Part shown: piece after piece, positions 91 to 17,065 of the stretch
Layout of the letters: every line of letters starts with the position of its first letter
Numbering within the stretch: the stretch's first letter is position 1
Virus record (IMG/VR): IMGVR_UViG_2925914267_000005
Span: 1-20,458 of that record
Origin: a virus
Taxonomy: Duplodnaviria > Heunggongvirae > Uroviricota > Caudoviricetes
Length of the DNA stretch: 20,458 bases
Strand: one strand, 5' to 3'
Notes under the pieces: model-generated
Seen by the model: the letters and a program-made list of their open reading frames with translations, nothing else
Told to the model about the DNA's origin: nothing
The model's database searches: none
Position numbers and translations under genes: made by a program

Positions 91-260
91 TTAGTATAAA
101 AAAGCTGAATGAGAAACGTAAAATGATATAAATATCAATATATTAAATTAGATTTTGCATAAAAAACAGACTACATAATACTGTAAAACACAACATATGC
201 AGTCACTATGAATCAACTACTTAGATAGCATTAGTGACCTACAACAGAGCATTAGCGCAA
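91..260 (-). other. attR: Prophage attR (P-O-B' junction): 15-bp lambda att core at 91-105 plus lambda attP P arm (about 106-260)
   Basis: Reverse complement of 91-105 is GCTTTTTTATACTAA, followed outward by CTTGAGCGAAACGGG (attB B' side as recalled); reverse complement of 106-260 reads like the lambda P arm (…AGGTCACTAAT…GTTGATTCATAGTGACTGCATATGTTGTGTTTTACAGTATTATG…). Confidence 0.85.
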
Positions 261-418
261 GGTGATTTTTGTCTTCTTGCGCTAATTTTTTGCTAATCCC
301 ACCATTTCTCAAAGATCACAAAGGGGTATGGTTGGTCTGGATGGCTCACCTGATGCAGAAGTATGATTTTGTAGTGACATCATTACCTTAATAGCGAACA
401 TTTCCTTGCCGCCTCGCA

Positions 419-446
419 TTGACGCGAGGTCGCACGGAAGTATAAT
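419..446 (+). promoter_or_regulatory. Putative sigma70 promoter for the acyltransferase gene: -35 TTGACG (419-424), 16-bp spacer, -10 TATAAT (441-446); 6-bp inverted repeat cctcgc/gcgagg (412-417 and 424-429) flanks the -35
   Basis: Hexamers read directly; positioned about 30 bp upstream of the ATG at 479. Confidence 0.5.
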
Positions 447-478
447 TCGTAGTCTTTCTACGTAGTTTAGGGAACAAT

Positions 479-1561
479 ATGTCGTCTAATAATCGACTCC
501 ATTATCTTGATGGTATTCGTGGCTGGGCCGCAACTATTGTTGTCTTCGGGCACACCATGGGGGGCGTGATTGCAATTGACGCACCTAATTTTGTAAATCA
601 TCAATGGATGAGCTTTTTTACAAATGCTCATCTTGCTGTTTTGGTATTTTTTGTTTTATCAGGCTACGTCCTGAGCGTTAGCCAAATCTACTCATCAAAA
701 CGTAATACTGCGGTATCCACCGTTGCAAGATTATTCAGATTGGCTCTTCCGATTCTGTTCGTAAGCCTTGTCGCATATATCATGATGAGGTTAAACCTAT
801 TTTTCAATGTTCAAGCCGCTACTAATGACATATCGAAATCGTGGTTAGGGACATTTTTCAGGTTTGAGCCGTCACTACCTGGTGTATTTTCCTTTTCATT
901 TTTCGATGTATTTTTCGCTTATGATACTCCGACATCATACAACTCTTCATTATGGACCATGCCTATAGAAATGGCTGGGTCAATTCTAATTTATTCATAC
1001 ATAGCTATATTCAGAACTGAAAAATTCAACTGGATAATTTCTTCCATTTTAATAGTTTATTTCTATTTTTATAGCCCATTCATGTTCTGCTTTATGGTTG
1101 GGTATGTTCTGGCTGAACTGAAAAAAATTAACAACCTATACCTGAGTGGTAGAAATGAAATACCGTTGATATTTATTTTCTTTGCCATGATCTATCTGGA
1201 TACATACCATAGGCCGGTTGATGAGATTATTCAGGCGCTTGAGGCGGTAGTATTTGTTGTTGTAATATCTTACAGCAAAACTTTATCATCGCTGTTCTCA
1301 TCAAGAGCATCAAGATTTATGGGCAGGATTTCGTTTTCTCTATATCTAGTTCAGATACTGGTTATTTGCTCATGGTCTTCGTACATGAAGATTTTACTAT
1401 CAAACTCTGGTATTAATATAAATATTGCAGCCTCAATAAACCTCATATCATCCATGGCTTTGTGCATATTAACAGCAAGAGCCATGACTCCTATTGATGA
1501 ATTTAGTGTTAAACACTCCAAAACCATTGCTTTTAAATTATTAAATTTATGCTCTAGGTAA
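479..1561 (+). CDS. Integral-membrane acyltransferase family 3 protein, probable O-antigen/LPS O-acetyltransferase (prophage moron)
   Basis: 360-aa ORF; N-terminal motif LDGIRGWAATIVVFGHT typical of acyltransferase-3 family; multiple hydrophobic segments; markedly AT-rich relative to neighbours. Confidence 0.75.
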   Translation: MSSNNRLHYLDGIRGWAATIVVFGHTMGGVIAIDAPNFVNHQWMSFFTNAHLAVLVFFVLSGYVLSVSQIYSSKRNTAVSTVARLFRLALPILFVSLVAYIMMRLNLFFNVQAATNDISKSWLGTFFRFEPSLPGVFSFSFFDVFFAYDTPTSYNSSLWTMPIEMAGSILIYSYIAIFRTEKFNWIISSILIVYFYFYSPFMFCFMVGYVLAELKKINNLYLSGRNEIPLIFIFFAMIYLDTYHRPVDEIIQALEAVVFVVVISYSKTLSSLFSSRASRFMGRISFSLYLVQILVICSWSSYMKILLSNSGININIAASINLISSMALCILTARAMTPIDEFSVKHSKTIAFKLLNLCSR

Positions 1562-2174
1562 CCAAGTCGTCAAGATGCACTTTAAGCCCCATAAGGGGCT
1601 TTCCATTCGCTCAGGTCTATCGAATCCACCATCCTGGCATACTAAAATGTTAATCGATATGCCATCAATCACTTCTTTCTCTTCATCCATTTCTGCCACG
1701 TAAATTGCGGCAATCGTATGGACGCTTTTCCTCAATTGGTTCATTATTTTTCCGATATGTCACACCCCATATTTAGATTTCAACGTTATTAGATCACTCG
1801 CAAACTGTTCCTTCAGCATTGGATATTTAGCTTGCTAATGCTGCATGATTGCTTCCATCAGTTAAAGATGCAGAACTAAAAGCTAACGTAAGAAATGAAA
1901 CATTCTCTTGATATGCTTTACTTAAGCTTTTCAGCTCTTTTTTGTATAGATAAGCATTTATTGTTGATTCTGAAATAATTTTATACTCCAGCTACTGACA
2001 GAATTTACTATTTGATGAATTGTGTTTATCTCCTAATGAGTGCTTAACATTTTAATTCATTACAATTTCCTTATATTCAAGGTATTTTTCAAGATCTTGC
2101 TCACAACGGAATATTGATACTAATTGACTTTCATCATTAGTTGAAAGTTGGATGTATAGATTCATCAATAGTCC

Positions 2175-3329
2175 TTAAATAGTATACCCACTTACACCAA
2201 CAGTTAAGCTAGATACTGATGATGTTGTCCAAGTGAATGTATAATAAATTGTTTGAGGGTTCTGGATTAGAAGCTCATAGTAAAAATCGACGCCAGTAGA
2301 TCTACTTAAACCAGCATATGCCTGGAAATACCCTACATCCTGGGTATCAGAAGCAATTGAAGCAGCTGCATAACCATCACCTTCCCCTGTGTTACAAAAC
2401 ACATAACCAGTACAGGTTGCTGCGTTTTTCGGGATCGCGTTTGTAAGAGAAATTGGAGTATACCCACCTGGGTTGCTACTGGTTGACAGTACATCAACTC
2501 GCTGGGTAGCGAACTTTCTCCCTCTTTGGTACCCAATTTTTAACAGCGCCCCAGATGTTGTTCCCCACACCGATACCAAAGCGCTCGCCGTATATCCTGC
2601 TGGCATGTTTGCACCACCATATACCGTGGGAGCAATAATAGAAGTGACGTCCTGAGCAAGTAATGCCGAGGTATCTGTCGTCGGGTTATAAATCAGGTAA
2701 ATTGCAACCCAACCACTGGCTGGCGCACTACCAGTATCCATGCCACCCGCCCCAGTCGTGGTGAGATTGATGGTTTTGTTGACCGAGCTTAAACGGTACT
2801 GCTTACCAGATAATGACTCACCAACAATGACTTGATCAGCAGTGAACGTTGCTGATGCCGACGCTATTGCCACGCTCATTTTCTGGTTAACAGCCTGACC
2901 AACCACGCCGGTGAATGATTCTCGCATCTTGAGGTAATCACTTAGCGGCGACCACCCAGCTGAAGAAGTATTAGGGTCGTTTGTGTTGTTGTTGATAGTG
3001 CTGATATAAATCGTTGCGCCGTCATCACTGATGAGAACAGCTCCAAGAGGATACCCTCCAACCGCCGTTGAAAAATCTGAGTCAAAAGCATTAAGAGCGC
3101 CTGCGCTAGACCATCTGCAAAGGGAAGACAACTCATACAAGATTTGATTCATGTCCTGCCCTTTGGGAGGAAGGCCCCCGGCAGATTTCAAAATCATTGT
3201 TATTGGTGGGAATCCTAAATCGTAGGATGCTGTATTATCTCCAGCTGGAGTTGTCGGCAGAAGATCCTCTCTTTGACCATTTACTCCAAAAGGTTTTGGT
3301 TGTTTTTTGGGTGAGTCAGAGCGATTCAT
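2175..3329 (-). CDS. Phage tail fiber protein
   Basis: 384-aa ORF; N-terminal GFPPITMILKSAGGLPPKGQDMNQILYEL resembles tail-collar fibre domain; Ser/Thr/Gly-rich C-terminal region; last gene of the baseplate operon. Confidence 0.7.
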   Translation of the reverse strand: MNRSDSPKKQPKPFGVNGQREDLLPTTPAGDNTASYDLGFPPITMILKSAGGLPPKGQDMNQILYELSSLCRWSSAGALNAFDSDFSTAVGGYPLGAVLISDDGATIYISTINNNTNDPNTSSAGWSPLSDYLKMRESFTGVVGQAVNQKMSVAIASASATFTADQVIVGESLSGKQYRLSSVNKTINLTTTGAGGMDTGSAPASGWVAIYLIYNPTTDTSALLAQDVTSIIAPTVYGGANMPAGYTASALVSVWGTTSGALLKIGYQRGRKFATQRVDVLSTSSNPGGYTPISLTNAIPKNAATCTGYVFCNTGEGDGYAAASIASDTQDVGYFQAYAGLSRSTGVDFYYELLIQNPQTIYYTFTWTTSSVSSLTVGVSGYTI

Positions 3330-3331
3330 AC

Positions 3332-3970
3332 TTAATTCCTATAAAATGTGCCATCATTAAACGGGTAGGCGTCAGATGAAAAACCGAAATAAGGACTAAT
3401 AATTTTTCGAATATTTACCTGAACACCACTAGGAACTGGCATTACTTCATAATTTGTGAGAATAGATTCCTCGTATGGTGCAAGTTCAAACTCGAATGTT
3501 ATTCCAATGGTCATATCTCGATAATTCACACAGTATGCCCTTCCTCTTTGAAAAAATAATATCTTTAAAAACTTGTTGATTTCTGGAATCGTAGCAATAC
3601 TTATGTTCGTAAACGCTTTGCAAAATATGAGTGTTCTGTAAGCCTCGTCACTCAATCTAACATTTGTTGTCTCCTGTGCTCCTCCAAAAAAAGGAGAGTT
3701 GTTGAACGGAGCGGGGTAATTTGGTTCTGCATTATCAGCTTCACTGAATCCGAAGGAATTGGTCTCTATAGGTGAGTTAATATAGCGACTTATCCCTACT
3801 ATTTTCCCCCACATATCCAGGCCGAATGTATCACAGGTAGTCAAATCCCATACTTTTTTAATAAACTCATCAGTGAAATCATCAAGGCTAATTGCCTGAT
3901 TAAAGGTATCAATGATGGATAGTAATTTTTTGCTTGCAGAGTACTGGGTAAGAATTGTGTCCTCCCACAT
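3332..3970 (-). CDS. Phage tail/baseplate protein (P2 gpI / Mu gp48 position)
   Basis: 212-aa ORF between the baseplate J-like gene and the tail fiber gene, matching P2 V-W-J-I-H order; family assignment by position only. Confidence 0.45.
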   Translation of the reverse strand: MWEDTILTQYSASKKLLSIIDTFNQAISLDDFTDEFIKKVWDLTTCDTFGLDMWGKIVGISRYINSPIETNSFGFSEADNAEPNYPAPFNNSPFFGGAQETTNVRLSDEAYRTLIFCKAFTNISIATIPEINKFLKILFFQRGRAYCVNYRDMTIGITFEFELAPYEESILTNYEVMPVPSGVQVNIRKIISPYFGFSSDAYPFNDGTFYRN

Positions 3971-3980
3971 ACATTTCCCC

Positions 3981-5210
3981 CTACGATAATGTAACAGTGA
4001 TATCTGATTCCTGAATGGTTGGAACCTGGTCTATGCCCATAGTCACAGCCGGTCCGTATAGTGAACCATCGAGAGAAACTTCAAGAGACAAAATTCCAAC
4101 TGTATCAGGAGATATTGAAATAACAGGGGCATAGTATTTACCAGCATTTATCGTCGAACCAATTCGTGCCTTTCCAATACCCTCATATCCTCCATTGAAC
4201 ACAGTGACAATCATTTCCTTTACTTGTTTAGTAATATCACTTGGGGGATTTAGTGAAGCATCGACATTTACCTTAAAGTAAACCCGCGTAGGTGATGCCT
4301 TTTGCCATTGCATTACATAAGATGGATATGGCGGCATGTAATTAACGTTATCGTAAACAGTGAACGTTGTATTACCATTCATATTGGCCCCGGGGTTATA
4401 AGTATTGAATATTGACTCAGCAACATCCGTATCAGCCCCGCCATAAACACAAATATAAACAGAATGCGCAAGAATCGGGAAATTCGTTGTTCCTTTATTT
4501 ACTGTTTCTGCAGTTCTGTTTGACCATACGTAAGCATCAAGCACACCATCAGTCGCAAGTAACGCGGCTAATGTAGATGCGTCCTGATTTCGACTGTTTC
4601 TGGCAACTGATTGTCTCCGGCGAGTTTCAAAGGCGATCCGTGATTCAACATCAACACCAACGACTCCAGGGCTAGTATTATTTACAGCATCCCACCCGGA
4701 AACGGCTCGATAAATCTGGTTCAGTGAACCTGCGGCACACGGAATCGGCCCGGTTGTTGTGTTGACAAACTGCACATCAACAGAGCCTGATGAGGGTATT
4801 ACAGCATTATCAATTGACTGATATATATACCCGCTCGTATCCACAGCGGTACTCCCTGCTGGTATTGTTGTTCCAACCTGACCAATGCATGTTGCTGTAA
4901 CAACTGTCCCCTGAGCAGCGATCCGCTCCATAAAGTAAATCCGACCAATCCCGTCCTGGAATCTGCCGGTTGAAAAGTCAGGGTTAATTTGATTAAACAA
5001 ACAAAGAAGCTTGTCGTATTCCTGAGCGATAATTTCAGTGTCAGACTGGGCGATCTGCCCTTGCGGTGAACTCAGTGACTGACTTGCGCCACCGCCAAGG
5101 GCCGTTGACATGTCTGTAAGTCTTCCCGCCAATACATCTGCTATATCGGGGACTGAAAGACCGTTTTCAGTGATGGTTACATCAGGAACAGCCGTATTTA
5201 ATGTCGTCAT
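3981..5210 (-). CDS. Baseplate J-like protein (P2 gpJ / Mu gp47 family)
   Basis: 409-aa ORF; size, position and sequence character consistent with baseplate J family; start overlaps upstream gene by 4 nt. Confidence 0.65.
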   Translation of the reverse strand: MTTLNTAVPDVTITENGLSVPDIADVLAGRLTDMSTALGGGASQSLSSPQGQIAQSDTEIIAQEYDKLLCLFNQINPDFSTGRFQDGIGRIYFMERIAAQGTVVTATCIGQVGTTIPAGSTAVDTSGYIYQSIDNAVIPSSGSVDVQFVNTTTGPIPCAAGSLNQIYRAVSGWDAVNNTSPGVVGVDVESRIAFETRRRQSVARNSRNQDASTLAALLATDGVLDAYVWSNRTAETVNKGTTNFPILAHSVYICVYGGADTDVAESIFNTYNPGANMNGNTTFTVYDNVNYMPPYPSYVMQWQKASPTRVYFKVNVDASLNPPSDITKQVKEMIVTVFNGGYEGIGKARIGSTINAGKYYAPVISISPDTVGILSLEVSLDGSLYGPAVTMGIDQVPTIQESDITVTLS

Positions 5211-5566
5211 AAGGTGGCCTGTGCAATATTACCATTGATATCTGTAACGCGGATTGTCCCGCGAGTTGTGCGTGTATTCTTGTCAAAGAAAACTGACGCC
5301 AGAGCATCCTCAACAACGGGTAATTTGAGTGCTTCAGCCTGCATTTTCTGAGCAATAAAACCAGGAGATGGTCGCCTGCCAAGAACTTCTGCCTTCCATG
5401 GGATCCCAAGTGTATTGTCGTAATAACACTCTCCTGAAAACACCAGGCATGCACTGGCGACATCCTGAGCAACAGAATATGATTCTTCTGCGATCGCCAG
5501 ATTGCCATTTCCGTCAAGCGTCAAGTCCCACGTAGAAGTGTCCAGCTGCATAGTTCTGTATGTCAT
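5207..5566 (-). CDS. Small baseplate wedge protein (P2 gpW / Mu gp46-like)
   Basis: 119-aa ORF between the V-like and J-like genes; translational coupling at both ends. Confidence 0.5.
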   Translation of the reverse strand: MTYRTMQLDTSTWDLTLDGNGNLAIAEESYSVAQDVASACLVFSGECYYDNTLGIPWKAEVLGRRPSPGFIAQKMQAEALKLPVVEDALASVFFDKNTRTTRGTIRVTDINGNIAQATL

Positions 5567-6255
5567 GTCGGTTTATCCGTTGCATTGGAATTTATTGTTG
5601 ACCCACCACTTTGTATTCCTGAAACAGAATGTTTGTGATTGTTATAGTTGTCCCTTAAATTTTTAACAGTAGATGACTGTGAGTCTGCGTTATCCTGAAT
5701 ATCGCCACTAACTTTAAGTAAAGGCGTATTCATGTTGACTCCATCAGGAGCATCAATATTTAACGATGAGCATTTGATATTTAGTGGGTTAGGCGTGGTT
5801 ATATTTATTGCACCGTCAGCGAATTCAATGAATTGAGTAGGTGAAATGTTTAATACCCCACCAAGATAAATCGCATCCGATTTACTGTGTCGTCTTTTGC
5901 TTCCAGGTACTGATTCTTTACGATTTTTTCTTACCAGTGATGTGTCTTTGTCGCATACCGCAATCAGACCAATATCACCTGCCACAGGGTCCATAATTAC
6001 AGCGCTGTTTCCTCTCTGCAACCGCCATACGGGAAGATCATATAAAACCGAGTTGGAAATCATTTTTCCTGTACGGTCTGTTCTGGTTAGTAAAGGAAGA
6101 ACATCAACAACTAAATCTGGTGCTTCCCCTCTGACTTCCTGAACTTTCGCTAACTCAATGAAGAAATATCCAGACATCAGCATCTCAAAAATATATTCCT
6201 GAGATTGAGCCTCACTTACCTGAGCAGGCGTTGGAGTAAATAGTTGCTTATCCAT
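5563..6255 (-). CDS. Baseplate assembly/spike protein V-like
   Basis: Start chosen at the ATG (MDKQLFTP…) that overlaps the upstream stop as ATGGATAA; the longer ORF to 6348 would overlap the upstream gene by about 100 nt; motif PVWRLQRGNSAVIMDPVAGDIGLIAV fits gpV-like fold. Confidence 0.5.
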   Translation of the reverse strand: MDKQLFTPTPAQVSEAQSQEYIFEMLMSGYFFIELAKVQEVRGEAPDLVVDVLPLLTRTDRTGKMISNSVLYDLPVWRLQRGNSAVIMDPVAGDIGLIAVCDKDTSLVRKNRKESVPGSKRRHSKSDAIYLGGVLNISPTQFIEFADGAINITTPNPLNIKCSSLNIDAPDGVNMNTPLLKVSGDIQDNADSQSSTVKNLRDNYNNHKHSVSGIQSGGSTINSNATDKPT

Positions 6256-7129
6256 TATTCTGTTGCGCCTCTGCTCTTTGTTCCGCTGTTCTGGCGGCAA
6301 TACATATTGAGTGCCATGAACCATTTGGCATCCATGATGATAATTCATGCCGAACGGAGGTTAACTTATACCTTCCGCTTGCATGTGGTAGTTCTGTTTT
6401 GATATCCACATATCTTCCAATGCAAAGGAGAGATGAATATTGCGTCTGAAACATCAGCCCCCCATTTGAAAATACAGGATATCCAACAAGTCCGTATTCT
6501 CTGGATATAAACGGAATTACATCATCTCTGTTTTTTTCTGAAGGCCAGAACTCTACTTTTGCAGGTGGCGTAGCTGACATTGCCAGTCCATAATCTGAAC
6601 AGACTCTATAAAGTTGCTCAAAAACACTTCCTTCAAAATGCGGACTTCCTGATGTTGTCATCCCTTTTACATTATTAAACACAGCTTCATAACCTGCACT
6701 TGCACAAATGGATGAGATGACATCTTCAACACTTTGCGCCCCCTGTGCTGTAAACGGGCTTGCTGGCATGTTCTGCAAATCAACATTAGAAGAAGCTGTT
6801 ATCATCAGGCTGCTTTCAGGAGCAGAATTCATGTTTGCTATTGATGAAAGCATCGTGCCAGAGAAAACAAGAGAATCATCGGCAAATACTTCAACATTTA
6901 GCTTCTGCCCTTCTCCAATAATACCATCAGCCTTCCCTGATATATCAGCAAGCCTTTCAATTCCTAACCCGTAAAGAGATATATCAGCCTGAGCGCCTCC
7001 CCGACCGGTAACAAAGTTCAGGGATACTGTTGACTTAACATTTCTGATGGAGATTTTATTGTTCCCATTTTTATCAAATGCTGATGATTCATTCGTGAAG
7101 TCAAACCGAAGACTGTGATTTTTATACAA
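6248..7129 (-). CDS. Phage tail/baseplate protein (possible hub, Mu gp44 / P2 gpD position)
   Basis: ORF runs to 7237, but the ATG starts would overlap the upstream gene by at least 80 nt; an in-frame TTG at 7129 preceded by GAGGA (8-nt spacer) overlaps the upstream stop; start uncertain. Confidence 0.4.
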   Translation of the reverse strand: MYKNHSLRFDFTNESSAFDKNGNNKISIRNVKSTVSLNFVTGRGGAQADISLYGLGIERLADISGKADGIIGEGQKLNVEVFADDSLVFSGTMLSSIANMNSAPESSLMITASSNVDLQNMPASPFTAQGAQSVEDVISSICASAGYEAVFNNVKGMTTSGSPHFEGSVFEQLYRVCSDYGLAMSATPPAKVEFWPSEKNRDDVIPFISREYGLVGYPVFSNGGLMFQTQYSSLLCIGRYVDIKTELPHASGRYKLTSVRHELSSWMPNGSWHSICIAARTAEQRAEAQQNNG

Positions 7130-7424
7130 GCTCGTTTTCCTCGATGTAGTACAGCAAGTAACGGCTACCCAAGCCTTCCCATTGCGGATCCGATTCCCCA
7201 TCATTATCAATGAAAATAAGGTCTCCCTTAAATCCAAGGTAGGAATATCTTACCATCTTATTCCCATACAGACATGGAACGCCCTGCATAATTGGGACTT
7301 CATTAACAGTTAAATCCATGTACATAAAACTCTGTCGCTGAACAAGTTTTATATTACATTGCTGACCAGACAGACTTACCGAAATGGACTGAGATTTGCT
7401 GGGAAGAACAGATACTGTAATCAT
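7122..7424 (-). CDS. Hypothetical phage tail-module protein (100 aa)
   Basis: Intact ORF with an in-frame stop 9 nt upstream and an AAGG ribosome-binding site; first retained gene after the IS600-like element. Confidence 0.4.
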   Translation of the reverse strand: MITVSVLPSKSQSISVSLSGQQCNIKLVQRQSFMYMDLTVNEVPIMQGVPCLYGNKMVRYSYLGFKGDLIFIDNDGESDPQWEGLGSRYLLYYIEENELV

Positions 7425-7573
7425 GTACTCGCCTTAACTATATTTTTTGCAATATCTGCCGCTTTTTTTGTTGCGCTGTTTGTGACTTCGAGTATTGGTT
7501 TGGATACCGTGAGGTAGCCTGAGTTTAACGGACACTCCTTCCTGAAATAGAATGGCATCAGAAGGAGCTAATA

Positions 7574-7876
7574 ATGAGCAGAAAAACCCAACGTTACTCT
7601 AAAGAGTTCAAAGCCGAAGCTGTCAGAACGGTTCTTGAAAATCAACTTTCGATCAGTGAAGGCGCTTCCCGATTATCTCTTCCTGAAGGCACTTTAGGGC
7701 AATGGGTTACCGCCGCCAGAAAAGGGCTCGGTACTCCTGGTTCCCGCACGGTGGCTGAACTGGAATCTGAAATTCTGCAACTGCGTAAGGCGTTAAATGA
7801 AGCTCGCCTTGAGCGAGATATATTAAAAAAAGCAACAGCGTATTTTGCACAGGAGTCGCTGAAAAATACGCGTTAA
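7574..7876 (+). CDS. IS3-family transposase OrfA (helix-turn-helix)
   Basis: 100-aa ORF MSRKTQRYSKEFKAEAVR…; contains the frameshift window near its 3' end. Confidence 0.85.
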   Translation: MSRKTQRYSKEFKAEAVRTVLENQLSISEGASRLSLPEGTLGQWVTAARKGLGTPGSRTVAELESEILQLRKALNEARLERDILKKATAYFAQESLKNTR

Positions 7877-7911
7877 TCGAACAATGGCGACAACAATTTC
7901 CCATTGAAGCG

Positions 7912-8730
7912 ATGTGTCAGGTATTTGGTGTATCCAGGAGCGGTTATTACAACTGGGTACAGCATGAACCCTCAGACAGAAAACAAAGTGATGAGCGGCT
8001 AAAACTGGAGATTAAGGTGGCACATATCCGCACTCGCGAAACATATGGAACCCGGCGGCTCCAGACGGAGCTGGCAGAGAATGGCATCATCGTTGGTCGT
8101 GACCGACTGGCACGTCTTCGTAAGGAGCTAAGGCTACGCTGTAAGCAGAAACGCAAGTTCAGAGCGACTACGAACTCGAACCACAATCTGCCAGTTGCGC
8201 CAAATCTGCTGAACCAGACGTTCGCTCCTACAGCACCAAATCAGGTCTGGGTGGCGGACCTGACGTATGTTGCCACACAGGAGGGATGGTTGTACCTCGC
8301 TGGCATCAAAGATGTTTATACGTGCGAAATTGTCGGCTACGCCATGGGAGAGCGCATGACAAAAGAGCTGACAGGTAAAGCCCTGTTTATGGCGCTCAGG
8401 AGCCAGCGCCCACCTGCCGGGCTAATCCACCACTCTGATCGAGGTTCACAGTACTGCGCATACGATTACCGGGTCATACAGGAGCAGTTTGGTCTGAAAA
8501 CATCAATGTCGCGTAAAGGTAACTGTTACGACAACGCTCCGATGGAAAGCTTCTGGGGAACGCTGAAAAATGAGAGCCTGAGCCACTATCGTTTTAATAA
8601 CCGGGATGAAGCCATCTCAGTAATACGGGAATACATTGAGATTTTCTACAATCGTCAGCGTCGTCACTCTCGTCTGGGGAATATCTCCCCGGCAGCCTTC
8701 AGGGAAAAATATCATCAGATAGCTGCTTAA
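7912..8730 (+). CDS. IS3-family transposase OrfB (DDE catalytic domain), normally made as OrfAB fusion by -1 frameshift
   Basis: 272-aa ORF with integrase-core-like motifs (…HSDRGSQY…NAPMESFWGTLK…). Confidence 0.85.
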   Translation: MCQVFGVSRSGYYNWVQHEPSDRKQSDERLKLEIKVAHIRTRETYGTRRLQTELAENGIIVGRDRLARLRKELRLRCKQKRKFRATTNSNHNLPVAPNLLNQTFAPTAPNQVWVADLTYVATQEGWLYLAGIKDVYTCEIVGYAMGERMTKELTGKALFMALRSQRPPAGLIHHSDRGSQYCAYDYRVIQEQFGLKTSMSRKGNCYDNAPMESFWGTLKNESLSHYRFNNRDEAISVIREYIEIFYNRQRRHSRLGNISPAAFREKYHQIAA

Positions 8731-8994
8731 AAAAAGAACAAATGGTAGTGTCCGCTATTGCCAGTACACCTCAGGGAAATATGTCGATAAATGGGCAATA
8801 CGAACGACGGCAATGATTGCCAGAGAACTTGGTAAACAGAACAACAAGGCTGCCTGATGGTGGCCTTTATTTTTGGCATAAACAACAGAATAAACACTGC
8901 ACTGTGTATTCATTCCAACGAGTGAATACACGGAGCAATGTCGCTCGTAACTAAACAGGAGCCAACTTGTTCTGATTATTGGAAATCTTCTTTG

Positions 8995-9020
8995 CCCTCC
9001 AGTGTGAGGGCAATTTTTTT
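8995..9020 (+). terminator. Possible intrinsic terminator (ccctc-cagtgt-gaggg plus T8) just upstream of the coiled-coil gene
   Basis: 5-bp GC stem and T-run read directly; short stem, so weak. Confidence 0.3.
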
Positions 9021-9033
9021 TAACGGGGGAAAT

Positions 9034-10002
9034 ATGAGTGAAGTAACAGATTTAGTTGTTATTGAAAAAGCAAATGCAATGACTGTATTTCAGTCTGCCG
9101 ACCAGATTGAAGAAATCCTTCAAAAGGTTGAACGTGAAGTTATGTCCTTTGTGCCTGATATCACAACGGCAAAGGGCAGAAAGGAGATCGCTTCTCTGGC
9201 GTATAAAGTTGCGCAGACGAAAACATATCTCGATGGTCTTGGCAAAGACCTTGTTGCTGAACTGAAGGAAATTCCAAAGCTAATTGATGCTAACCGCAAG
9301 ACAGTGCGTGATCGCCTTGATGAGCTGAAAGCCAAGGCACGCCAGCCTCTTACTGATTATGAGGAAGAACAGGCGCGGATTAAAGCCGAAGAAGAAGCTA
9401 AGGCAGCAGCTGAAGCTCTCGCAAAGCAAATTGAGTCTGACCATGAAATAGCGATTTTGATGGATCGCGAATTTGACCGCCAAAGAGAAGAGGCAAGACT
9501 CAAAGCGGAGCAGGAAAAGCGAGAGCATGAAGAACGCTTAAAAAGAGAAGCTGAAGAGAAAGCCAGAGCTGAAGCCGAAGCAAAGGCAAAAGCCGAAATT
9601 GAAGCAGCAGCAAGGCGAGAAGCAGAAGCTAAGGCCGCAGCGGAACGTGCAGAGCGTGAACGCATTGAAGCCGAGCAACGAGCACAGCGCGAAGCAAAAG
9701 AGGCAGCAGAACGAGCTGAAAGAGAAAAGCAGGCAGCAATTGAAGCAGAACGCCGAAAAGCACAGGAGGAGGCAGAACGAATCCGGCGCGAGGCTGAAGC
9801 AAAAGAGCAAGCCAGAATAGCAGAAGAAAAAAGAATCAAGGACGAAGAAGAGCGTAGAGCAAAGGATAAAGCTCACCGGAGAGAAGTAAATAACAAAATA
9901 CTTGCTGACCTTATCAAGGTTGGCGCATCAGAAGATGTTGCTAAAAATATCATAATAGCCATCGCAAAAGGCGAAGTATTCGCAACAAAAATAACCTACT
10001 AA
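9034..10002 (+). CDS. Hypothetical phage early protein with long E/A/K/R-rich predicted coiled-coil region (TolA-domain-II-like composition)
   Basis: ATG at 9034 preceded by GGGGGA; ORF could extend upstream to 8938; central ~200 aa is low-complexity EAKAR-type; occupies the position of ea10/ral/sieB upstream of cIII. Confidence 0.6.
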   Translation: MSEVTDLVVIEKANAMTVFQSADQIEEILQKVEREVMSFVPDITTAKGRKEIASLAYKVAQTKTYLDGLGKDLVAELKEIPKLIDANRKTVRDRLDELKAKARQPLTDYEEEQARIKAEEEAKAAAEALAKQIESDHEIAILMDREFDRQREEARLKAEQEKREHEERLKREAEEKARAEAEAKAKAEIEAAARREAEAKAAAERAERERIEAEQRAQREAKEAAERAEREKQAAIEAERRKAQEEAERIRREAEAKEQARIAEEKRIKDEEERRAKDKAHRREVNNKILADLIKVGASEDVAKNIIIAIAKGEVFATKITY

Positions 10003-10026
10003 TAAAACCAACATAAGGAACCACCC

Positions 10027-10197
10027 ATGATTTACGCAATCGCGGGAGGCGCTCGCATGGGTGCCTTCCAACTAAATGAATCTTTACTTGAACGAATCAC
10101 CCGTAAATTACGTGACGGATGGAAACGACTTATCGACATACTTAATCAGCCAGGAGTCCCAAAAAATGGATCAAACACTTATGGCTATCCAGACTAA
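10027..10197 (+). CDS. cIII: Lambda-like CIII (FtsH/HflB inhibitor)
   Basis: 56-aa [59 protein letters not shown], near-identical over most of its length to lambda CIII as recalled; preceded by AAGGA. Confidence 0.85.
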   Translation: MIYAIAGGARMGAFQLNESLLERITRKLRDGWKRLIDILNQPGVPKNGSNTYGYPD

Positions 10198-10309
10198 ATT
10201 CACTATCGCCACTTTTATTGGCGATGAAAAGATGTTTCGTGAGGCCGTCGACGCTTATAAAAAATGGATATTAATACTGAAACTGAGATCAAGCAAAAGC
10301 ATTCACTAA
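10166..10309 (+). CDS. kil: Lambda Kil (FtsZ-ring inhibitor)
   Basis: 47-aa [50 protein letters not shown] matches lambda Kil as recalled; overlaps cIII 3' end. Confidence 0.85.
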
Positions 10310-10680
10310 CCCCCTTTCCTGTTTTCCTAATCAGCCCGGCATTTCGCGGGCGATATTTTCACAGCTATTTCAGGAGTTCAGCCATGAACGCTTATTACAT
10401 TCAGGATCGTCTTGAGGCTCAGAGCTGGACGCGTCACTACCAGCAGATCGCCCGTGAAGAGAAAGAGGCAGAACTGGCAGACGACATGGAAAAAGGCCTG
10501 CCCCAGCACCTGTTTGAATCGCTATGCATCGATCATTTGCAACGCCACGGGGCCAGCAAAAAAGCCATTACCCGTGCGTTCGATGACGATGTTGAGTTTC
10601 AGGAGCGCATGGCAGAACACATCCGGTACATGGTTGAAACTATTGCCCGCCACCAGGTTGATATTGATTCAGAGGTATAA
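10264..10680 (+). CDS. gam: Lambda Gam (RecBCD inhibitor); GamS internal start at 10383
   Basis: 138-aa [52 protein letters not shown]… near-identical to lambda Gam as recalled. Confidence 0.92.
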
Positions 10681-10685
10681 AACGG

Positions 10686-11471
10686 ATGAGTACAGCACTC
10701 GCAACGCTGGCAGGGAAGCTGGCTGAACGTGTCGGCATGGATTCTGTCGACCCACAGGAACTGATCACCACTCTTCGCCAGACAGCATTTAAAGGCGATG
10801 CCAGCGATGCGCAGTTCATCGCATTGCTGATCGTCGCCAACCAGTACGGCCTTAATCCGTGGACGAAAGAAATTTACGCCTTCCCTGATAAGCAGAACGG
10901 CATCGTTCCGGTGGTGGGCGTTGATGGCTGGTCCCGTATCATCAATGAAAACCAGCAGTTTGATGGCATGGACTTTGAGCAGGACAATGAATCCTGCACA
11001 TGCCGGATTTACCGCAAGGACCGTAATCATCCGATCTGCGTTACCGAGTGGATGGATGAATGCCGCCGCGAACCATTCAAAACCCGCGAAGGCAGAGAAA
11101 TCACGGGGCCGTGGCAGTCGCATCCCAAACGGATGTTACGGCATAAAGCCATGATTCAGTGTGCCCGTCTCGCCTTCGGATTTGCTGGTATCTATGACAA
11201 GGATGAAGCCGAGCGCATTGTCGAAAATACCGCATACACTGCAGAACGTCAGCCGGAACGCGACATCACTCCGGTTAACGATGAAACCATGCAGGAGATT
11301 AACACTCTGCTGATTGCCCTGGATAAAACATGGGATGACGACTTATTGCCGCTCTGTTCCCAAATATTTCGCCGCGACATTCGCGCATCGTCAGAACTGA
11401 CACAGGCCGAAGCAGTGAAAGCTCTTGGATTCCTGAAACAGAAAGCCACTGAGCAGAAGGTGGCAGCATGA
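10686..11471 (+). CDS. bet: Lambda Red beta (single-strand annealing protein)
   Basis: 261-aa [41 protein letters not shown]… near-identical to lambda Bet as recalled. Confidence 0.95.
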
Positions 11472-12148
11472 CACCGGACATTATCCTGCAGCGTACCGGG
11501 ATCGACGTGAGAGCTGTCGAACAGGGGGATGATGCATGGCACAAATTACGGCTCGGCGTCATCACCGCTTCAGAAGTTCACAACGTGATAGCAAAGCCCC
11601 GATCAGGAAAGAAGTGGCCTGACATGAAAATGTCCTACTTCCACACCCTGCTGGCTGAGGTTTGCACCGGTGTGGCTCCGGAAGTTAACGCTAAAGCGCT
11701 GGCCTGGGGAAAACAGTACGAGAACGACGCCAGAACCCTGTTTGAGTTCACTTCCGGCGTAAATGTTATTGAATCCCCGATCATCTATCGCGACGAAAGT
11801 ATGCGCACCGCCTGCTCTCCCGATGGTTTATGCAGTGACGGCAATGGCCTTGAGCTGAAATGCCCGTTTACCTCCCGGGATTTCATGAAGTTCCGGCTCG
11901 GTGGTTTCGAGGCCATAAAGTCGGCTTACATGGCCCAGGTGCAGTACAGCATGTGGGTGACGCGAAAAGATGCCTGGTACTTTGCCAACTATGACCCGCG
12001 TATGAAGCGTGAAGGCCTGCATTATGTCGTGGTTGAGCGGGATGAAAAGTACATGGCGAGTTTTGACGAGATGGTGCCGGAGTTCATCGAAAAAATGGAC
12101 GAGGCACTGGCTGAAATTGGTTTTGTATTTGGGGAGCAATGGCGATGA
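11468..12148 (+). CDS. exo: Lambda exonuclease (Red alpha)
   Basis: 226-aa [68 protein letters not shown]… near-identical to lambda Exo as recalled; ATGA overlap with bet. Confidence 0.95.
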
Positions 12149-12327
12149 CGCATCCTCACGATAATATCCGGGTAGGCGCGATCACTTTCGTCTACTCCGT
12201 TACAAAGCGAGGCTGGGTATTTCCCGGCCTTTCTGTTATCCAAAATCCACTGAAAGCCCAGCGGCTGGCTGAGGAGATAAATAATAAACGAGGGGCTGTA
12301 TGCACAAAGCATCTCCCGTTGAGTTAA
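12145..12327 (+). CDS. Lambda orf60a-like hypothetical protein
   Basis: [56 protein letters not shown]…; ATG overlaps exo stop (ATGA); alternative ATG at 12139. Confidence 0.8.
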
Positions 12328-12491
12328 GAACGAGTATCGAGATGGCACATAGCCTCGCTCAAATTGGAGTCAGGTTTGTGCCAATACCAGTAGAAACAGA
12401 CGAAGAATTTCATACGTTAGCCACATCCCTTTCACAAAAGCTGGAAATGATGGTGGCGAAAGCAGAAGCAGATGAGAGAGACCAGGTATGA
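12300..12491 (+). CDS. Lambda orf63-like hypothetical protein
   Basis: 63-aa ORF in lambda order between orf60a and orf61. Confidence 0.75.
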   Translation: MHKASPVELRTSIEMAHSLAQIGVRFVPIPVETDEEFHTLATSLSQKLEMMVAKAEADERDQV

Positions 12492-12571
12492 CAACCACTG
12501 AATGCATTTTTCTGGCAGCGGGCTTCATATTCTGTGTGCTTATGCTTGCCGACATGGGACTTGTTCAATGA
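12488..12571 (+). CDS. Candidate 27-aa hydrophobic micro-protein (MTTTECIFLAAGFIFCVLMLADMGLVQ)
   Basis: Not in ORF track (too short); start ATG overlaps orf63 stop as ATGA and its stop overlaps orf61 start as ATGA; single predicted transmembrane helix. Confidence 0.35.
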   Translation: MTTTECIFLAAGFIFCVLMLADMGLVQ

Positions 12572-12783
12572 CACCTCAGCAAGAAAACGCCCTTCGCAGT
12601 ATTGCCCGTCAGGCTAATTATGAAATCAAAAAAGCCAGACAGCGGTTTCCGGATAAAAACGTCGATGACATTTGCCGTAGCGTACTGAAGAAGCACCGCG
12701 AAACGGTAACGCTGATGGGATTCACACCGACTCACTTAAGTCTGGCAATCGGTATGTTAAACGGCGTCTTTAAGGAACGGTGA
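12568..12783 (+). CDS. Lambda orf61-like hypothetical protein
   Basis: 71-aa ORF MTPQQENALRSIARQANYEIKKARQRFPDKNVDDICRSVLKKHRETVTLMGFTPTHLSLAIGMLNGVFKER matches lambda orf61 as recalled. Confidence 0.8.
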   Translation: MTPQQENALRSIARQANYEIKKARQRFPDKNVDDICRSVLKKHRETVTLMGFTPTHLSLAIGMLNGVFKER

Positions 12784-12804
12784 ACATGAAAAGCAAAATC
12801 ATCA

Positions 12805-12828
12805 GGGAGCTACAGGCTCCTTTTTTAT
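12805..12828 (+). terminator. Intrinsic terminator-like hairpin (ggagc-tacag-gctcc plus T6) after orf61
   Basis: Stem and T-run read directly. Confidence 0.5.
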
Positions 12829-12881
12829 TATTCGCATTCACCCTCAAGCGTATTAACCAACAATTCAGGGATTAATGAAAG

Positions 12882-13103
12882 ATGGCGGACATCATTGATT
12901 CAGCATCAGAAATTGAAGAATTACAGCGCAATACAGCAATAAAAATGCGCCGCCTGAACCACCAGGCTATATCTGCCACTCATTGTTGTGAGTGTGGCGA
13001 TCCCATAGATGAGCGAAGACGCCTGGCCGTTCAGGGTTGTCGGACTTGTGCAAGTTGCCAGGAAGTTCTGGAGCTTATCAGTAAACAGAGAGGTTCGAAG
13101 TGA
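12882..13103 (+). CDS. TraR/DksA-family C4-type zinc finger protein
   Basis: 73-aa ORF with CxxC…CxxC (CCECGDPIDERRRLAVQGCRTCASC) characteristic of phage/plasmid TraR-like proteins. Confidence 0.7.
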   Translation: MADIIDSASEIEELQRNTAIKMRRLNHQAISATHCCECGDPIDERRRLAVQGCRTCASCQEVLELISKQRGSK

Positions 13104-13471
13104 GCGAAATTAACTCTCAGGCACTGCGTGAAGCGGCAGAGCAGGCAATGCATGACAACTGGGGATTTGACGCGGACCTTTTCCATGAGCTGGTAACACC
13201 ATCGATTGTGCTGGCACTGCTGGATGAACGGGAAAGAAACCAGCAATACATCAAACGCCGCGACAAGGAGAACGAGGATATTGCACTAACGGTAGGGAGG
13301 CTGCGCGTTGAGCTGGAAGGCAAACACAGGCGCATTACTGAGCTGACAATGTGGATTAAGCGACTGAGTTCCTCTCTCAAAAACGCAAAACCAGACAGCA
13401 AGTTGCCGGATGACGCAATGATCTGGCTAAATAATGAAGGGCTTACCAGTATAGAGGATATTTTACGATGA
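13100..13471 (+). CDS. Ea22-like protein (N-terminal region resembles lambda Ea22)
   Basis: MSEINSQALREAAEQAMHDNWGFDADLFHELVTPSIVL…ERERNQQYIKRRD… matches recalled lambda Ea22 N-terminus, C-terminal part diverges. Confidence 0.65.
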   Translation: MSEINSQALREAAEQAMHDNWGFDADLFHELVTPSIVLALLDERERNQQYIKRRDKENEDIALTVGRLRVELEGKHRRITELTMWIKRLSSSLKNAKPDSKLPDDAMIWLNNEGLTSIEDILR

Positions 13472-14006
13472 GCACTTTTACCATGGAATGGCTACAAAAT
13501 ACGATTACCAGTATTGAGTCAGCACGAGATGAAATGCCATTCGGACTCGATAACGATCAAGCACACATGCTTACAGCATTTAAAATCGCTCTCGCCTCAC
13601 TGGAACGCGAGCGGGTTCGCCACGAGCATGCCAAATGGTCTGACTCCACATTTGGCTGCGTTGGCCCCATTGGTCCACTGAAACACCTCTCAAAAGAGGC
13701 TCTGGAAGCCGCAGCCGAACCTGACGATCTCAGCGAGTGGGCTGATATGCAGTTCCTGTTGTGGGATGCACAGCGCCGTGCTGGCATCAGCGATGCTGAA
13801 ATTAACGTTGCTATGGAAGATAAATTGAAGATCAACATGGAGCGCCAGTGGCCTGAGCCAAAAGATGGTGAGCCTCGCTTGCACATTAAAGAACCCGGCA
13901 ACTCTCCGATAATTCCGGATGGTTTACCCACGGTATGCGCTGAGGCTTATCAGGTTGTAGGAGTTATGGCAGATGCGCTTGGTGTATTCGGTGATGCAGC
14001 AGTACA
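13468..14006 (+). pseudogene. 5' fragment of a phage gene interrupted by the IS629-like element
   Basis: ORF continues in-frame across the IS if the IS and one ACA copy are removed (…GDAAV|QKVLDNL…). Confidence 0.7.
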
Positions 14007-14060
14007 TGAACCGCCCCGGGAATCCTGGAGACTAAACTCCCTGAGAAAGAGGTAAACAGG

Positions 14061-14387
14061 ATGACTAAAAATACTCGTTTTTCCCCCGAAGTCCGTCAGA
14101 GGGCGATTCGTATGGTTCTGGAAAGTCAGGGCGAATATGACTCACAGTGGGAGGCAATTTGTTCCATTGCCCCAAAGATTGGCTGTACACCGGAGACTCT
14201 GCGTGTCTGGGTACGCCAGCATGAGCGGGATACCGGAGGCGGTGATGGCGGGCTCACCACCGCTGAACGTCAGCGTCTGAAAGAGCTGGAACGTGAAAAT
14301 CGTGAACTGCGCCGCAGTAACGATATCCTTCGCCAGGCTTCCGCTTATTTTGCGAAGGCGGAGTTCGACCGCCTCTGGAAAAAGTGA
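14061..14387 (+). CDS. IS3-family transposase OrfA
   Basis: 108-aa [29 protein letters not shown]…. Confidence 0.88.
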
Positions 14388-15274
14388 TGCCACTGCTGGA
14401 TAAGCTGCGTAAGCTGTACGGGGTCGGACCGGTATGCAGTGAACTACATATTGCCCCGTCAACGTATTACCACTGTCAGCAACAGCGACATCATCCTGAT
14501 AAACGCAGTGCCCGTGCGCAGCGCGATGACTGGCTGAAGAAAGAGATACTGCGCGTATACGATGGGAATCATCAGGTATACGGTGTGCGTAAAGTCTGGC
14601 GTCAGTTGTTACGGGAAGGAATCAGGGTAGCCAGATGTACAGTGGCGCGCCTCATGGCGGTTATGGGACTTGCCGGTGTTCTCCGGGGTAAAAAGGTCCG
14701 CACTACCGTCAGCCGGAAAGCCGTTGCCGCAGGCGACCGCGTAAACCGTCAGTTTGTGGCAGAACGTCCTGACCAGTTGTGGGTGGCTGATTTTACTTAC
14801 GTCAGCACATGGCAGGGCTTCGTCTATGTGGCGTTCATCATTGATGTGTTTGCCGGATACATCGTGGGGTGGCGGGTCTCATCGTCTATGGAAACGACAT
14901 TCGTGCTGGATGCTCTGGAGCAGGCGTTATGGGCCCGTCGACCGTCCGGCACAGTCCATCACAGTGATAAAGGTTCTCAGTATGTATCGCTGGCCTACAC
15001 ACAGCGGCTTAAGGAAGCCGGATTACTGGCATCAACAGGAAGTACTGGTGACTCGTATGACAACGCGATGGCGGAGAGCATCAATGGCCTTTACAAAGCG
15101 GAGGTAATACACCGTAAGAGCTGGAAAAACCGGACAGAAGTGGAGCTGGCCACACTCACGTGGGTGGACTGGTATAACAATCGACGATTGCTGGAAAGGC
15201 TGGGCCATATCCCACCGGCAGAAGCAGAAAAAGCTTATTATGCTTCCATCGGAAACGATGATCTGGCAGCCTGA
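14384..15274 (+). CDS. IS3-family transposase OrfB (DDE domain)
   Basis: 296-aa ORF with …HHSDKGSQY… and …[13 protein letters not shown]… motifs. Confidence 0.88.
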
Positions 15275-15319
15275 GTTCACAGATAAAACACTCTCCAGGA
15301 AACCCGGGGCGGTTCAACA

Positions 15320-15581
15320 GAAAGTTCTGGATAACCTGTCACAGCAAAAACTTGTTCACAGAGATGTGCTGCCGTTCTCGCTTCCGGTAATTCCGGATGG
15401 TTGGATAAGCTGTAGTGAGCGAATGCCCGCTCAAGATGATTGGATTTTAATTTATTCAAAGCACGGCGAGTATATGGCAGGACAGGTACAAGGGGAATAC
15501 GTGGAGTTGAGCGACGGCACTTTATCGTGGTTAGGGAACGCCTTGTTCTGGATGCCGCTACCGGAACCGCCGCAGGGGTGA
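15320..15581 (+). pseudogene. 3' fragment of the IS-interrupted phage gene; C-terminal DUF551-like domain
   Basis: In-frame continuation of the 13468 ORF after the IS; C-terminus …WISCSERMPAQDDWILIY…WMPLPEPPQG resembles DUF551 phage proteins. Confidence 0.65.
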
Positions 15582-15647
15582 AATGATGCTTGGCCTGAAG
15601 TATTTTATGTAATTGGTATTGCTATATTTTTATCTGGGGATAAACGA

Positions 15648-15890
15648 ATGTTCTCTCTGATTCAACGTGGTCAGATATACACCGATAGCGCTGGCTATCC
15701 AGTAAAAATCATTCGTAGTACTGATCACTCAGTGTTCTTCAAGAGGATGGATGGCTATCCTGGAAGGGTGTGCATCAGAAAATTCAATAATTTATTCGAA
15801 CACATTGATCACAGAGAATATCACCAGATCCTGGCTGAAACAGAACAGGAGAACCATCTGAAAAAATTACGTGCCATGCAAAGGAGATAA
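15648..15890 (+). CDS. Hypothetical small phage protein (80 aa)
   Basis: ORF with plausible codon usage in the accessory region upstream of xis; no family recognised with confidence. Confidence 0.5.
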   Translation: MFSLIQRGQIYTDSAGYPVKIIRSTDHSVFFKRMDGYPGRVCIRKFNNLFEHIDHREYHQILAETEQENHLKKLRAMQRR

Positions 15891-16032
15891 GCCGATAAAG
15901 GTGTTCGCGATAAAGGTGAATATCGGCACTGAATAACAATCCTCGCACTCGCGGGGATTTCTTTTATCTGAACTCGCTACGGCGGGTTCACCGTCAAGCT
16001 TTCTTCAATGCAAAAGCCAATGTGAGGACGCT

Positions 16033-16814
16033 ATGAATACTCAAATTTCTGTTGAAACACTTTCACCAATCACCTACAAACAAACCAACGTCATCACCAG
16101 CGAACTATTGGCGCAGTTGTACGGAACGGATGTTGTGCGCATCCGGCAAAACCATCATGAAAACAAGTCGCGCTTTGTTGAGGGGGTACACCTTCTACAA
16201 GGTCGTTGGTGACGAGCTGCGCGCTAAAACACAAAGTAGCTTTAAACTACTTTGTGAAAATTGCCCCAAATGCACGCCACCTCACCCTCTGGACAGAGCG
16301 CGGAGCCGCCCGTCACGCGAAGATGCTCGAAACGGATCAGGCACGGGACGTGTTCGAAAAACTGGAGGGCGGCTACTTCAATCAGCGCGAAAAGGTTGCC
16401 AACCATCCTCAACCAGTACCGCAACCAGAAAGTAGCCTAGACCGTGCGCGAGCCATGGAAATAGCTTTGAACGTGGCGGATCGACTGGTGAATATGTTCC
16501 CGAATCTGTCCTCAGAATCAAAGCAGGCAGCAGTAGCTGGAGTGTTCAACACGATTGTTGGTCGCGATGTTGTACCTCTGCCAGCTATCTCAGAGCACTA
16601 CTACTCTGCTACGGAAGTCGGCCAGCGCTACGGTATTTCAGCCAACAAGGTAGGACGCATTGCCAATACCTACATGCTCAAAACAGAAAAGTACGGTAAG
16701 TGGTTCATCGACAAATCGGCGCACAATGACAAGCAGGTTGAAACATTTCGGTACAACGAGGCTGGAGTGCACAAAATAGAGGAACTCATCGAAGGAGAGC
16801 GAAAGGCTGCATGA
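16033..16814 (+). pseudogene. ORF6N/KilA-N-like antirepressor-family gene, apparently disrupted by frameshift(s)
   Basis: ATG at 16033 with GAGG RBS encodes MNTQISVETLSPITYKQTNVITSELLAQLYGTDVVRIRQNHHENKSRFVEGVH then stops at 16210-16212; homology-like continuation FYKVVGDELRAKTQ… is in the +1 frame and …APNARHLTLWTERGAARHAKMLETDQA… in a third frame (ORF 16206-16814). Confidence 0.5.
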
Positions 16815-16863
16815 TTTGACAACACCGCCAGAGCTATCGCATACTGACCGCACTAGAAAATAT

Positions 16864-16890
16864 AGGCGGTCATCCGCACCCGATAGCCTT
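16864..16890 (+). terminator. Possible intrinsic terminator (ccgca…tgcgg stem followed by CTTTTT) downstream of the ORF6N-like gene
   Basis: Read directly; loop is long (about 10 nt) so moderate. Confidence 0.35.
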
Positions 16891-17012
16891 GCGGCTTTTT
16901 ATGCCCGTAATACGGCATAGTCACATCCGTACAAAGGTCGGGTGGAGAGGCGTAATACAACACCCGCAAGGGAAATATGCCCGGAGCTACCTATATTGCT
17001 CTAGTTGACACC

Positions 17013-17039
17013 CGATCACCAGCTACTCACTGGTGATCG
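17013..17039. promoter_or_regulatory. Perfect 10-bp inverted repeat cgatcaccag-ctactca-ctggtgatcg immediately downstream of a TTGACA hexamer (17005-17010), upstream of the AntA-like gene
   Basis: Read directly; candidate operator or RNA hairpin. Confidence 0.4.
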
Positions 17040-17065
17040 CACACTGAAAAATATAGGAGGTCATC

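Follow-up and report, generated by a model that had tools for sequence, protein, structure and literature searches.

A complete IS629-type insertion sequence, a member of the IS3 family, interrupts an accessory gene of the Eaa type in a prophage seated at the lambda attachment site of Escherichia coli. We are close to certain that the element reached this gene by one ordinary transposition event, which was most likely neutral, and no evidence contradicting a single transposition was found. The DNA analysed is a stretch of 20,458 nucleotides (hereafter the window), and the features discussed below are listed in Table 1.

Table 1. Features of the window that bear on the insertion, with positions counted from the first nucleotide of the window.
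Feature	Position	Strand	Remarks
Lambda-att prophage remnant, ~19 kb	91-19128		between the two att cores
Lambda att core GCTTTTTTATACTAA, 15 bp	91-105; 19114-19128		two exact copies, same orientation
IS600, full length, 1264 bp	7510-8773		99.4-99.6% identical to annotated IS600
Target gene, 5' part	13468-14006	+	codons 1-179 and 2 nt of codon 180; whole PF04447 domain
Chimeric ORF, 195 aa	13468-14055	+	5' part plus 16-aa IS-encoded tail; stop 14053-14055
20-nt direct repeat, left copy (19/20)	13905-13924	+	bounds middle segment, aa 147-201
Left ACA, 3-bp target-site duplication	14004-14006		abuts the IS629-type element
Complete IS629-type element (IS3 family), 1310 bp	14007-15316	+	same orientation as target gene
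IRL, left terminal inverted repeat	14007-14031	+	
orfA, 108 aa	14061-14387	+	HTH_Tnp_1, DNA-binding part of transposase (Pfam match)
ALIL pseudoknot, Rfam RF01497	14342-14458	+	116.2 bits, cut-off 50; spans orfA/orfB overlap
GGAAAAAG run, A-rich	14377-14384	+	directly before orfA stop; inside pseudoknot span
orfB, 296 aa	14384-15274	+	HTH_21 and rve (DDE integrase core); -1 frame relative to orfA
Mechanical ORF, 113 aa	15240-15581	+	ATG within the IS; in frame with 3' part
IRR, right terminal inverted repeat	15292-15316	-	
Right ACA, 3-bp target-site duplication	15317-15319		abuts the IS629-type element
Target gene, 3' part	15320-15581	+	third base of codon 180 to stop; DUF551 domain
20-nt direct repeat, right copy (19/20)	15383-15402	+	bounds middle segment, aa 147-201

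IS629 belongs to the IS3 family, was first described in Shigella sonnei, has the isoforms IS1203 and IS3411, and is abundant in E. coli O157:H7. The element in the window begins with TGAACCGCCCCGGG at 14007 and finishes with CCCGGGGCGGTTCA at 15316, as established by sequence reading and by script; over a longer stretch its ends read TGAACCGCCCCGGGAATCCTGGAGA at the start and TCTCCAGGAAACCCGGGGCGGTTCA at the finish. Its terminal inverted repeats of 25 nt match at 23 positions (92%), among them all of the first 14, and are thus imperfect repeats with the TG...CA termini of the IS3 family and IS629. The ACA on both flanks, present as a single copy in empty sites, is a target duplication of the 3-4 bp described for IS629 in O157:H7, where the target shows no sequence specificity (PMC3271280). 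An earlier note, made from the letters of the window, had placed an IS629-like element and its ACA duplication at exactly these positions.

Inside the element, orfA and orfB are consecutive, partly overlapping and offset by -1, and code for an HTH part followed by a DDE (rve) core, as in IS3-family elements. Both frames are full length and stop-free, and the orfB product scored 309.5 bits against the NCBIfam model transpos_IS3 (cut-off 160). The overlap carries a frameshift signal of the IS3 type, made up of a slippery run and a structure; the GGAAAAAG run is the likely -1 frameshift site, where a slip would produce an OrfAB fusion of ~404 aa.

The same 1310 bp are found, at 99.7% identity over the full length, in IS copies of thousands of E. 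coli records, both on chromosomes and on plasmids of ETEC (H10407, for example), and copies of the element occupy a median of four places per genome across E. coli genomes. In naming it we took the GenBank-annotated copies of IS629 (phage BP-4795 and the Stx phages) as reference. Identity to the copy of BP-4795 is 96.2%, with 50 mismatches over 1310 of 1310 nt and no gaps in a collinear alignment, and identity to the copies in Stx phages is 95.8-95.9%. Under the isoform rule of ISfinder, at least 95% nucleotide identity to a named element is needed, and the identity to the annotated IS629 of BP-4795 lies above this value. The element therefore resembles IS629 in its length, in the offsets of its two ORFs (55-381 and 378-1268, the same as in BP-4795), in its TG...CA repeats, its 3-bp duplication, its frameshift pseudoknot and its location in a prophage, while it differs at 50 of 1310 nt (3.8%) from the copies of BP-4795 and other STEC phages that bear the name. 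Subtypes of IS629 lie 4-5% apart (PMC3271280), and by sequence the distance of ~4% seen here is that between subtypes. We accordingly classify the element, from its sequence, as an intact IS629-type member of the IS3 family. It is apparently functional, and the zero divergence of its flanks (see below) points to recent movement.

In-silico excision showed what the element had interrupted. When the two parts of the gene were joined, they gave 801 nt, a multiple of three, and a stop-free ORF of 266 aa that reads ...GVFGDAAV-QKVLDNLSQQ... across the junction and ends in ...WMPLPEPPQG*. The IS and one ACA can be cut out in four equivalent ways, all of which lead to one identical sequence. The excision of 14007-15319 given in the earlier note was thus reproduced exactly in coordinates, junction residues and end. 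Its statement that the element splits the gene in frame is true only after excision: the insertion adds 1313 nt, which is not a multiple of three, so that the two parts are out of frame with each other as long as the element is in place.

The restored protein matched PF04447 (dATP/dGTP pyrophosphohydrolase, formerly DUF550) over aa 51-145 with 139.6 bits against a gathering threshold of 23, and PF04448 (DUF551) over aa 207-265 with 42.9 bits against 22. The description of the gene as DUF551-type hence fits its C-terminal domain but covers only the smaller half of the protein, the stronger match being to PF04447. For this protein, PHROGs returned no match with a known function, a PDB sequence search matched no solved structure, and NCBIfam held no model; pyrophosphohydrolase is the name of the Pfam family and stands here for a predicted activity. 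We assign the gene, from its domains, to the Eaa-type accessory genes of lambdoid early-left operons, with PF04447 and DUF551. Like the early-left proteins called EaA or Eaa in lambdoid and P22-like phages, which carry PF04447 with or without PF04448, it is encoded between ea22 and xis/int. The insertion point, codon 180, falls between the two domains, and the PF04447 domain remains intact in the truncated 195-aa product, whereas DUF551 is lost.

Compared with other Eaa-type alleles, the interrupted allele has an extra middle segment of 54 aa that is absent from some of them, and it is within this segment (aa 147-201) that the IS629-type element lies. The allele of E. coli Rb-50 (locus L012, 1501-2145) lacks exactly aa 147-201. 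Moreover, DUF551 modules have been swapped among alleles, other alleles carrying unrelated ones. The missing segment in Rb-50 and the swapped modules argue that the gene is a mosaic and that the segment hit by the element is facultative. The absence of the segment in Rb-50 looks as if recombination between the 20-nt repeats had lost or gained it.

The uninterrupted allele does occur in other isolates carrying the same prophage. The exact 266-aa protein is deposited at NCBI for E. coli (OKU74117.1 and OKW09122.1), and the allele is encoded on seven contigs examined, six of which are our loci L003-L008. All seven hold the same lambda-att prophage, in which the gene is followed by DUF4222, antirepressors, xis, int and ybhC. 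The window with the insertion removed has 0 mismatches to L003 over 8774-14006 and 15320-20458 (~10.4 kb), and it does not differ from L006 wherever the two overlap. A single ACA is also present at the site in a more distant allele, that of strain HCM-25C-3 (96.9% identity). Assemblies with the empty site include GCA_001912195.1, GCA_001912675.1, GCA_003982045.1 and GCA_049979945.1. Among contigs representing one genome per species, a 34-mer of the empty site matched only in Escherichia sp. E1V33, and the exact 42-mer of the junction gave 0 matches; when 500 bp spanning the left junction were searched against the 5,426 complete E. coli genomes of RefSeq, no place covered 80% or more of the query. 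The match to empty sites with a single ACA proves that the element came by simple transposition and duplicated 3 bp, and the 0 mismatches in the flanks show that the insertion is very recent, which bears out the earlier description of it as clean and recent-looking.

Independent support came from the draft assembly GCA_001912615.1, in which separate contigs carry the left and the right junction; the insertion is therefore real, not an assembly artefact, and is common to at least two assemblies. The chimeric 195-aa protein is WP_077901570.1 in RefSeq and the 113-aa ORF is OKV72306.1, each being found on two contigs. The pairing of IS600 with IS629 might have suggested Shigella, yet all database names attached to the intact, 195-aa and 113-aa proteins are those of E. 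coli. On one contig of the draft assembly (L002, 1-1056), the RecT-type bet is partly duplicated, the two pieces being 100% and 97% identical to overlapping stretches of window 10616-11314; an error of assembly or another, related prophage could account for this.

The prophage that received the element is itself heavily reduced. The att core occurs exactly twice in the window (0 occurrences expected by chance), Int matches Arm-DNA-bind_1 and Phage_integrase, and Xis matches Exc, features that mark a lambdoid prophage at the lambda (gal-bio) site. From the left, the gene order is an acyltransferase, tail-fibre and baseplate genes on the minus strand, and IS600; from IS600 onwards it is kil, gam, bet (RecT), exo (YqaJ), small genes, a traR-like gene, ea22 and the target gene; then come DUF4222, antirepressors, xis and int, with ybhC adjoining. 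In contrast to the IS629-type element, as the earlier note had also seen, IS600 has no target duplication, its left flank reading CCG and its right flank GGG. Beyond its right end, from 8774 on, the window and L003 agree exactly, whereas to its left the window has tail and baseplate genes and L003 has ral, N, cI and cII. These differences point to an IS600-associated deletion or rearrangement that would have removed the middle of the prophage. Judged by its gene content, the prophage is a remnant without immunity, replication, lysis and head regions. Since the ral/N/cI/cII side is replaced to the left of IS600, the early-left (pL) operon has lost its own promoter region. With xis, int and both att sites, the ~19-kb prophage might nevertheless be excisable.

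Further insertions were observed in related copies of this prophage. An IS629 lies in int in L008 (5981-6056), at the equivalent of window 18746/18747; an IS629 isoform with 96.5% identity lies beside the cII region in L003 (1-509); and an IS600 lies in int at 18204/18205 in L009 (3357-3762), which belongs to GCA_001912615.1, the assembly that shares the IS629-type insertion, while the window is without that IS600. On comparison of these loci, the same prophage is accumulating IS elements across isolates.

By analogy with the IS3 family, the insertion would have proceeded as follows. The OrfAB transposase would be made by a -1 frameshift at the A-run before the orfA stop, aided by the ALIL pseudoknot, and would copy the element out as a circle in a copy-out/paste-in reaction. 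The circle would then insert at a 3-bp staggered cut, the repair of which would give the ACA repeat. The expected outcome is a truncated product of 195 aa that has the whole pyrophosphohydrolase domain and is without DUF551.

Other accounts of the same structure were weighed against this one. Recombination between homologous IS copies, or a faulty assembly, would be conceivable as the source of the insertion in view of the many E. coli strains in which IS629 is multi-copy and the tendency of draft assemblies to break at such copies. However, the duplication of 3 bp is perfect, the duplicated sequence is single-copy in the isogenic empty site, nothing else has been gained or lost, and both junctions were recovered independently in a second assembly. 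Comparison with the empty site effectively refutes such an origin, to which we give a negligible probability. Alternatively, the element might have split the gene into two working proteins, namely a separate 195-aa pyrophosphohydrolase with a 16-aa IS-derived tail and a 113-aa DUF551 protein starting at ATG 15240 and transcribed by read-through from orfB. Both ORFs do exist and have been annotated by gene callers under the two accessions given above, the N-terminal Pfam domain is complete, and other genomes have annotated DUF550 proteins that stand alone. Against this, a scan of 13000-16100 returned no sigma-70-like promoter to drive the downstream fragment, no obvious ribosome-binding site was seen by eye before 15240, the ORF from 15240 follows mechanically from the reading frame, and the window strain has lost the pL promoter region upstream. 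We consider such a fission very improbable indeed; were it true, a phage accessory gene would provide a natural case of domains being split apart by an IS.

The earlier note had further proposed that the gene is dispensable or under counter-selection. Dispensability is upheld: there are natural alleles that have no counterpart of the interrupted segment, and what is left of the prophage, already truncated at IS600, measures only ~19 kb, so that the target gene can be spared. Selection is another matter. In favour of a benefit to the host from loss of the gene or of its DUF551 domain, the insertion is common to at least two assemblies that differ elsewhere and has thus persisted through some divergence. 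Yet this is one event at one site, the chimeric protein is encoded on two contigs as against seven examined with the intact allele, and the junction is present in 0 of the 5,426 RefSeq complete E. coli genomes. The pyrophosphohydrolase domain has been left intact, the promoter region of the operon is lost in the window strain, and the other IS hits, which fall in non-homologous places of the same prophage, have the look of unselected accumulation. Counter-selection is therefore unsupported, the event being single and rare, with an intact catalytic domain, in a silent remnant with an IS-rich background, and we regard a selected insertion as very improbable. A selectively neutral transposition is the most likely reading of the sequence, because the gene is mosaic and non-essential, natural alleles do without the segment hit, and the prophage was already a remnant.

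The element is a known one showing known behaviour, and its arrival in the prophage is a textbook IS insertion, a kind of event already known. Prophages and prophage-like elements house 62% of the IS629 copies of O157:H7 (PMC3271280). The present case resembles the insertions in the O157:H7 prophages (Sakai Sp/SpLE) in having a prophage gene as target and a duplication of 3-4 bp, and it resembles the O157:H7 sites in varying between close strains, which makes it usable as a lineage marker (PMC3271280). It differs from them in host background, in the IS629 being of a non-O157 type, and in prophage and site. The junctions at 14006/14007 and 15316/15317 offer a clean presence/absence marker for an E. 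coli sub-lineage, and the locus illustrates the decay of a prophage through IS accumulation, the IS600 and IS629 sites differing among isolates. For annotation, WP_077901570.1 (195 aa) and OKV72306.1 (113 aa) should be treated as fragments of one interrupted 266-aa gene, a pseudogene.

Several other genes of the prophage deserve mention. The 354-aa ORF directly to the right of IS600 (8938-10002), called as 322 aa in L003, had no Pfam match, and its PHROG matches were to families of unknown function only. Downstream of the target gene, a 59-aa ORF (16033-16212) overlaps a 202-aa ORF (16206-16814) by 7 nt. In L005-L008, whose DNA is identical here, the former has been called as a gene with an ORF6N domain, and the latter matches an anti-repressor profile of PHROGs (264 residues) over positions 69-264. 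Together they resemble a single anti-repressor gene broken by a frameshift, and the same break is present in related loci. At the opposite end, just inside the att core and beside the tail-fibre gene on the opposite strand, lies a gene for a 360-aa membrane acyltransferase of the Acyl_transf_3 family (479-1561), which could be a phage-borne acetylase of surface polysaccharide, that is, a moron gene.
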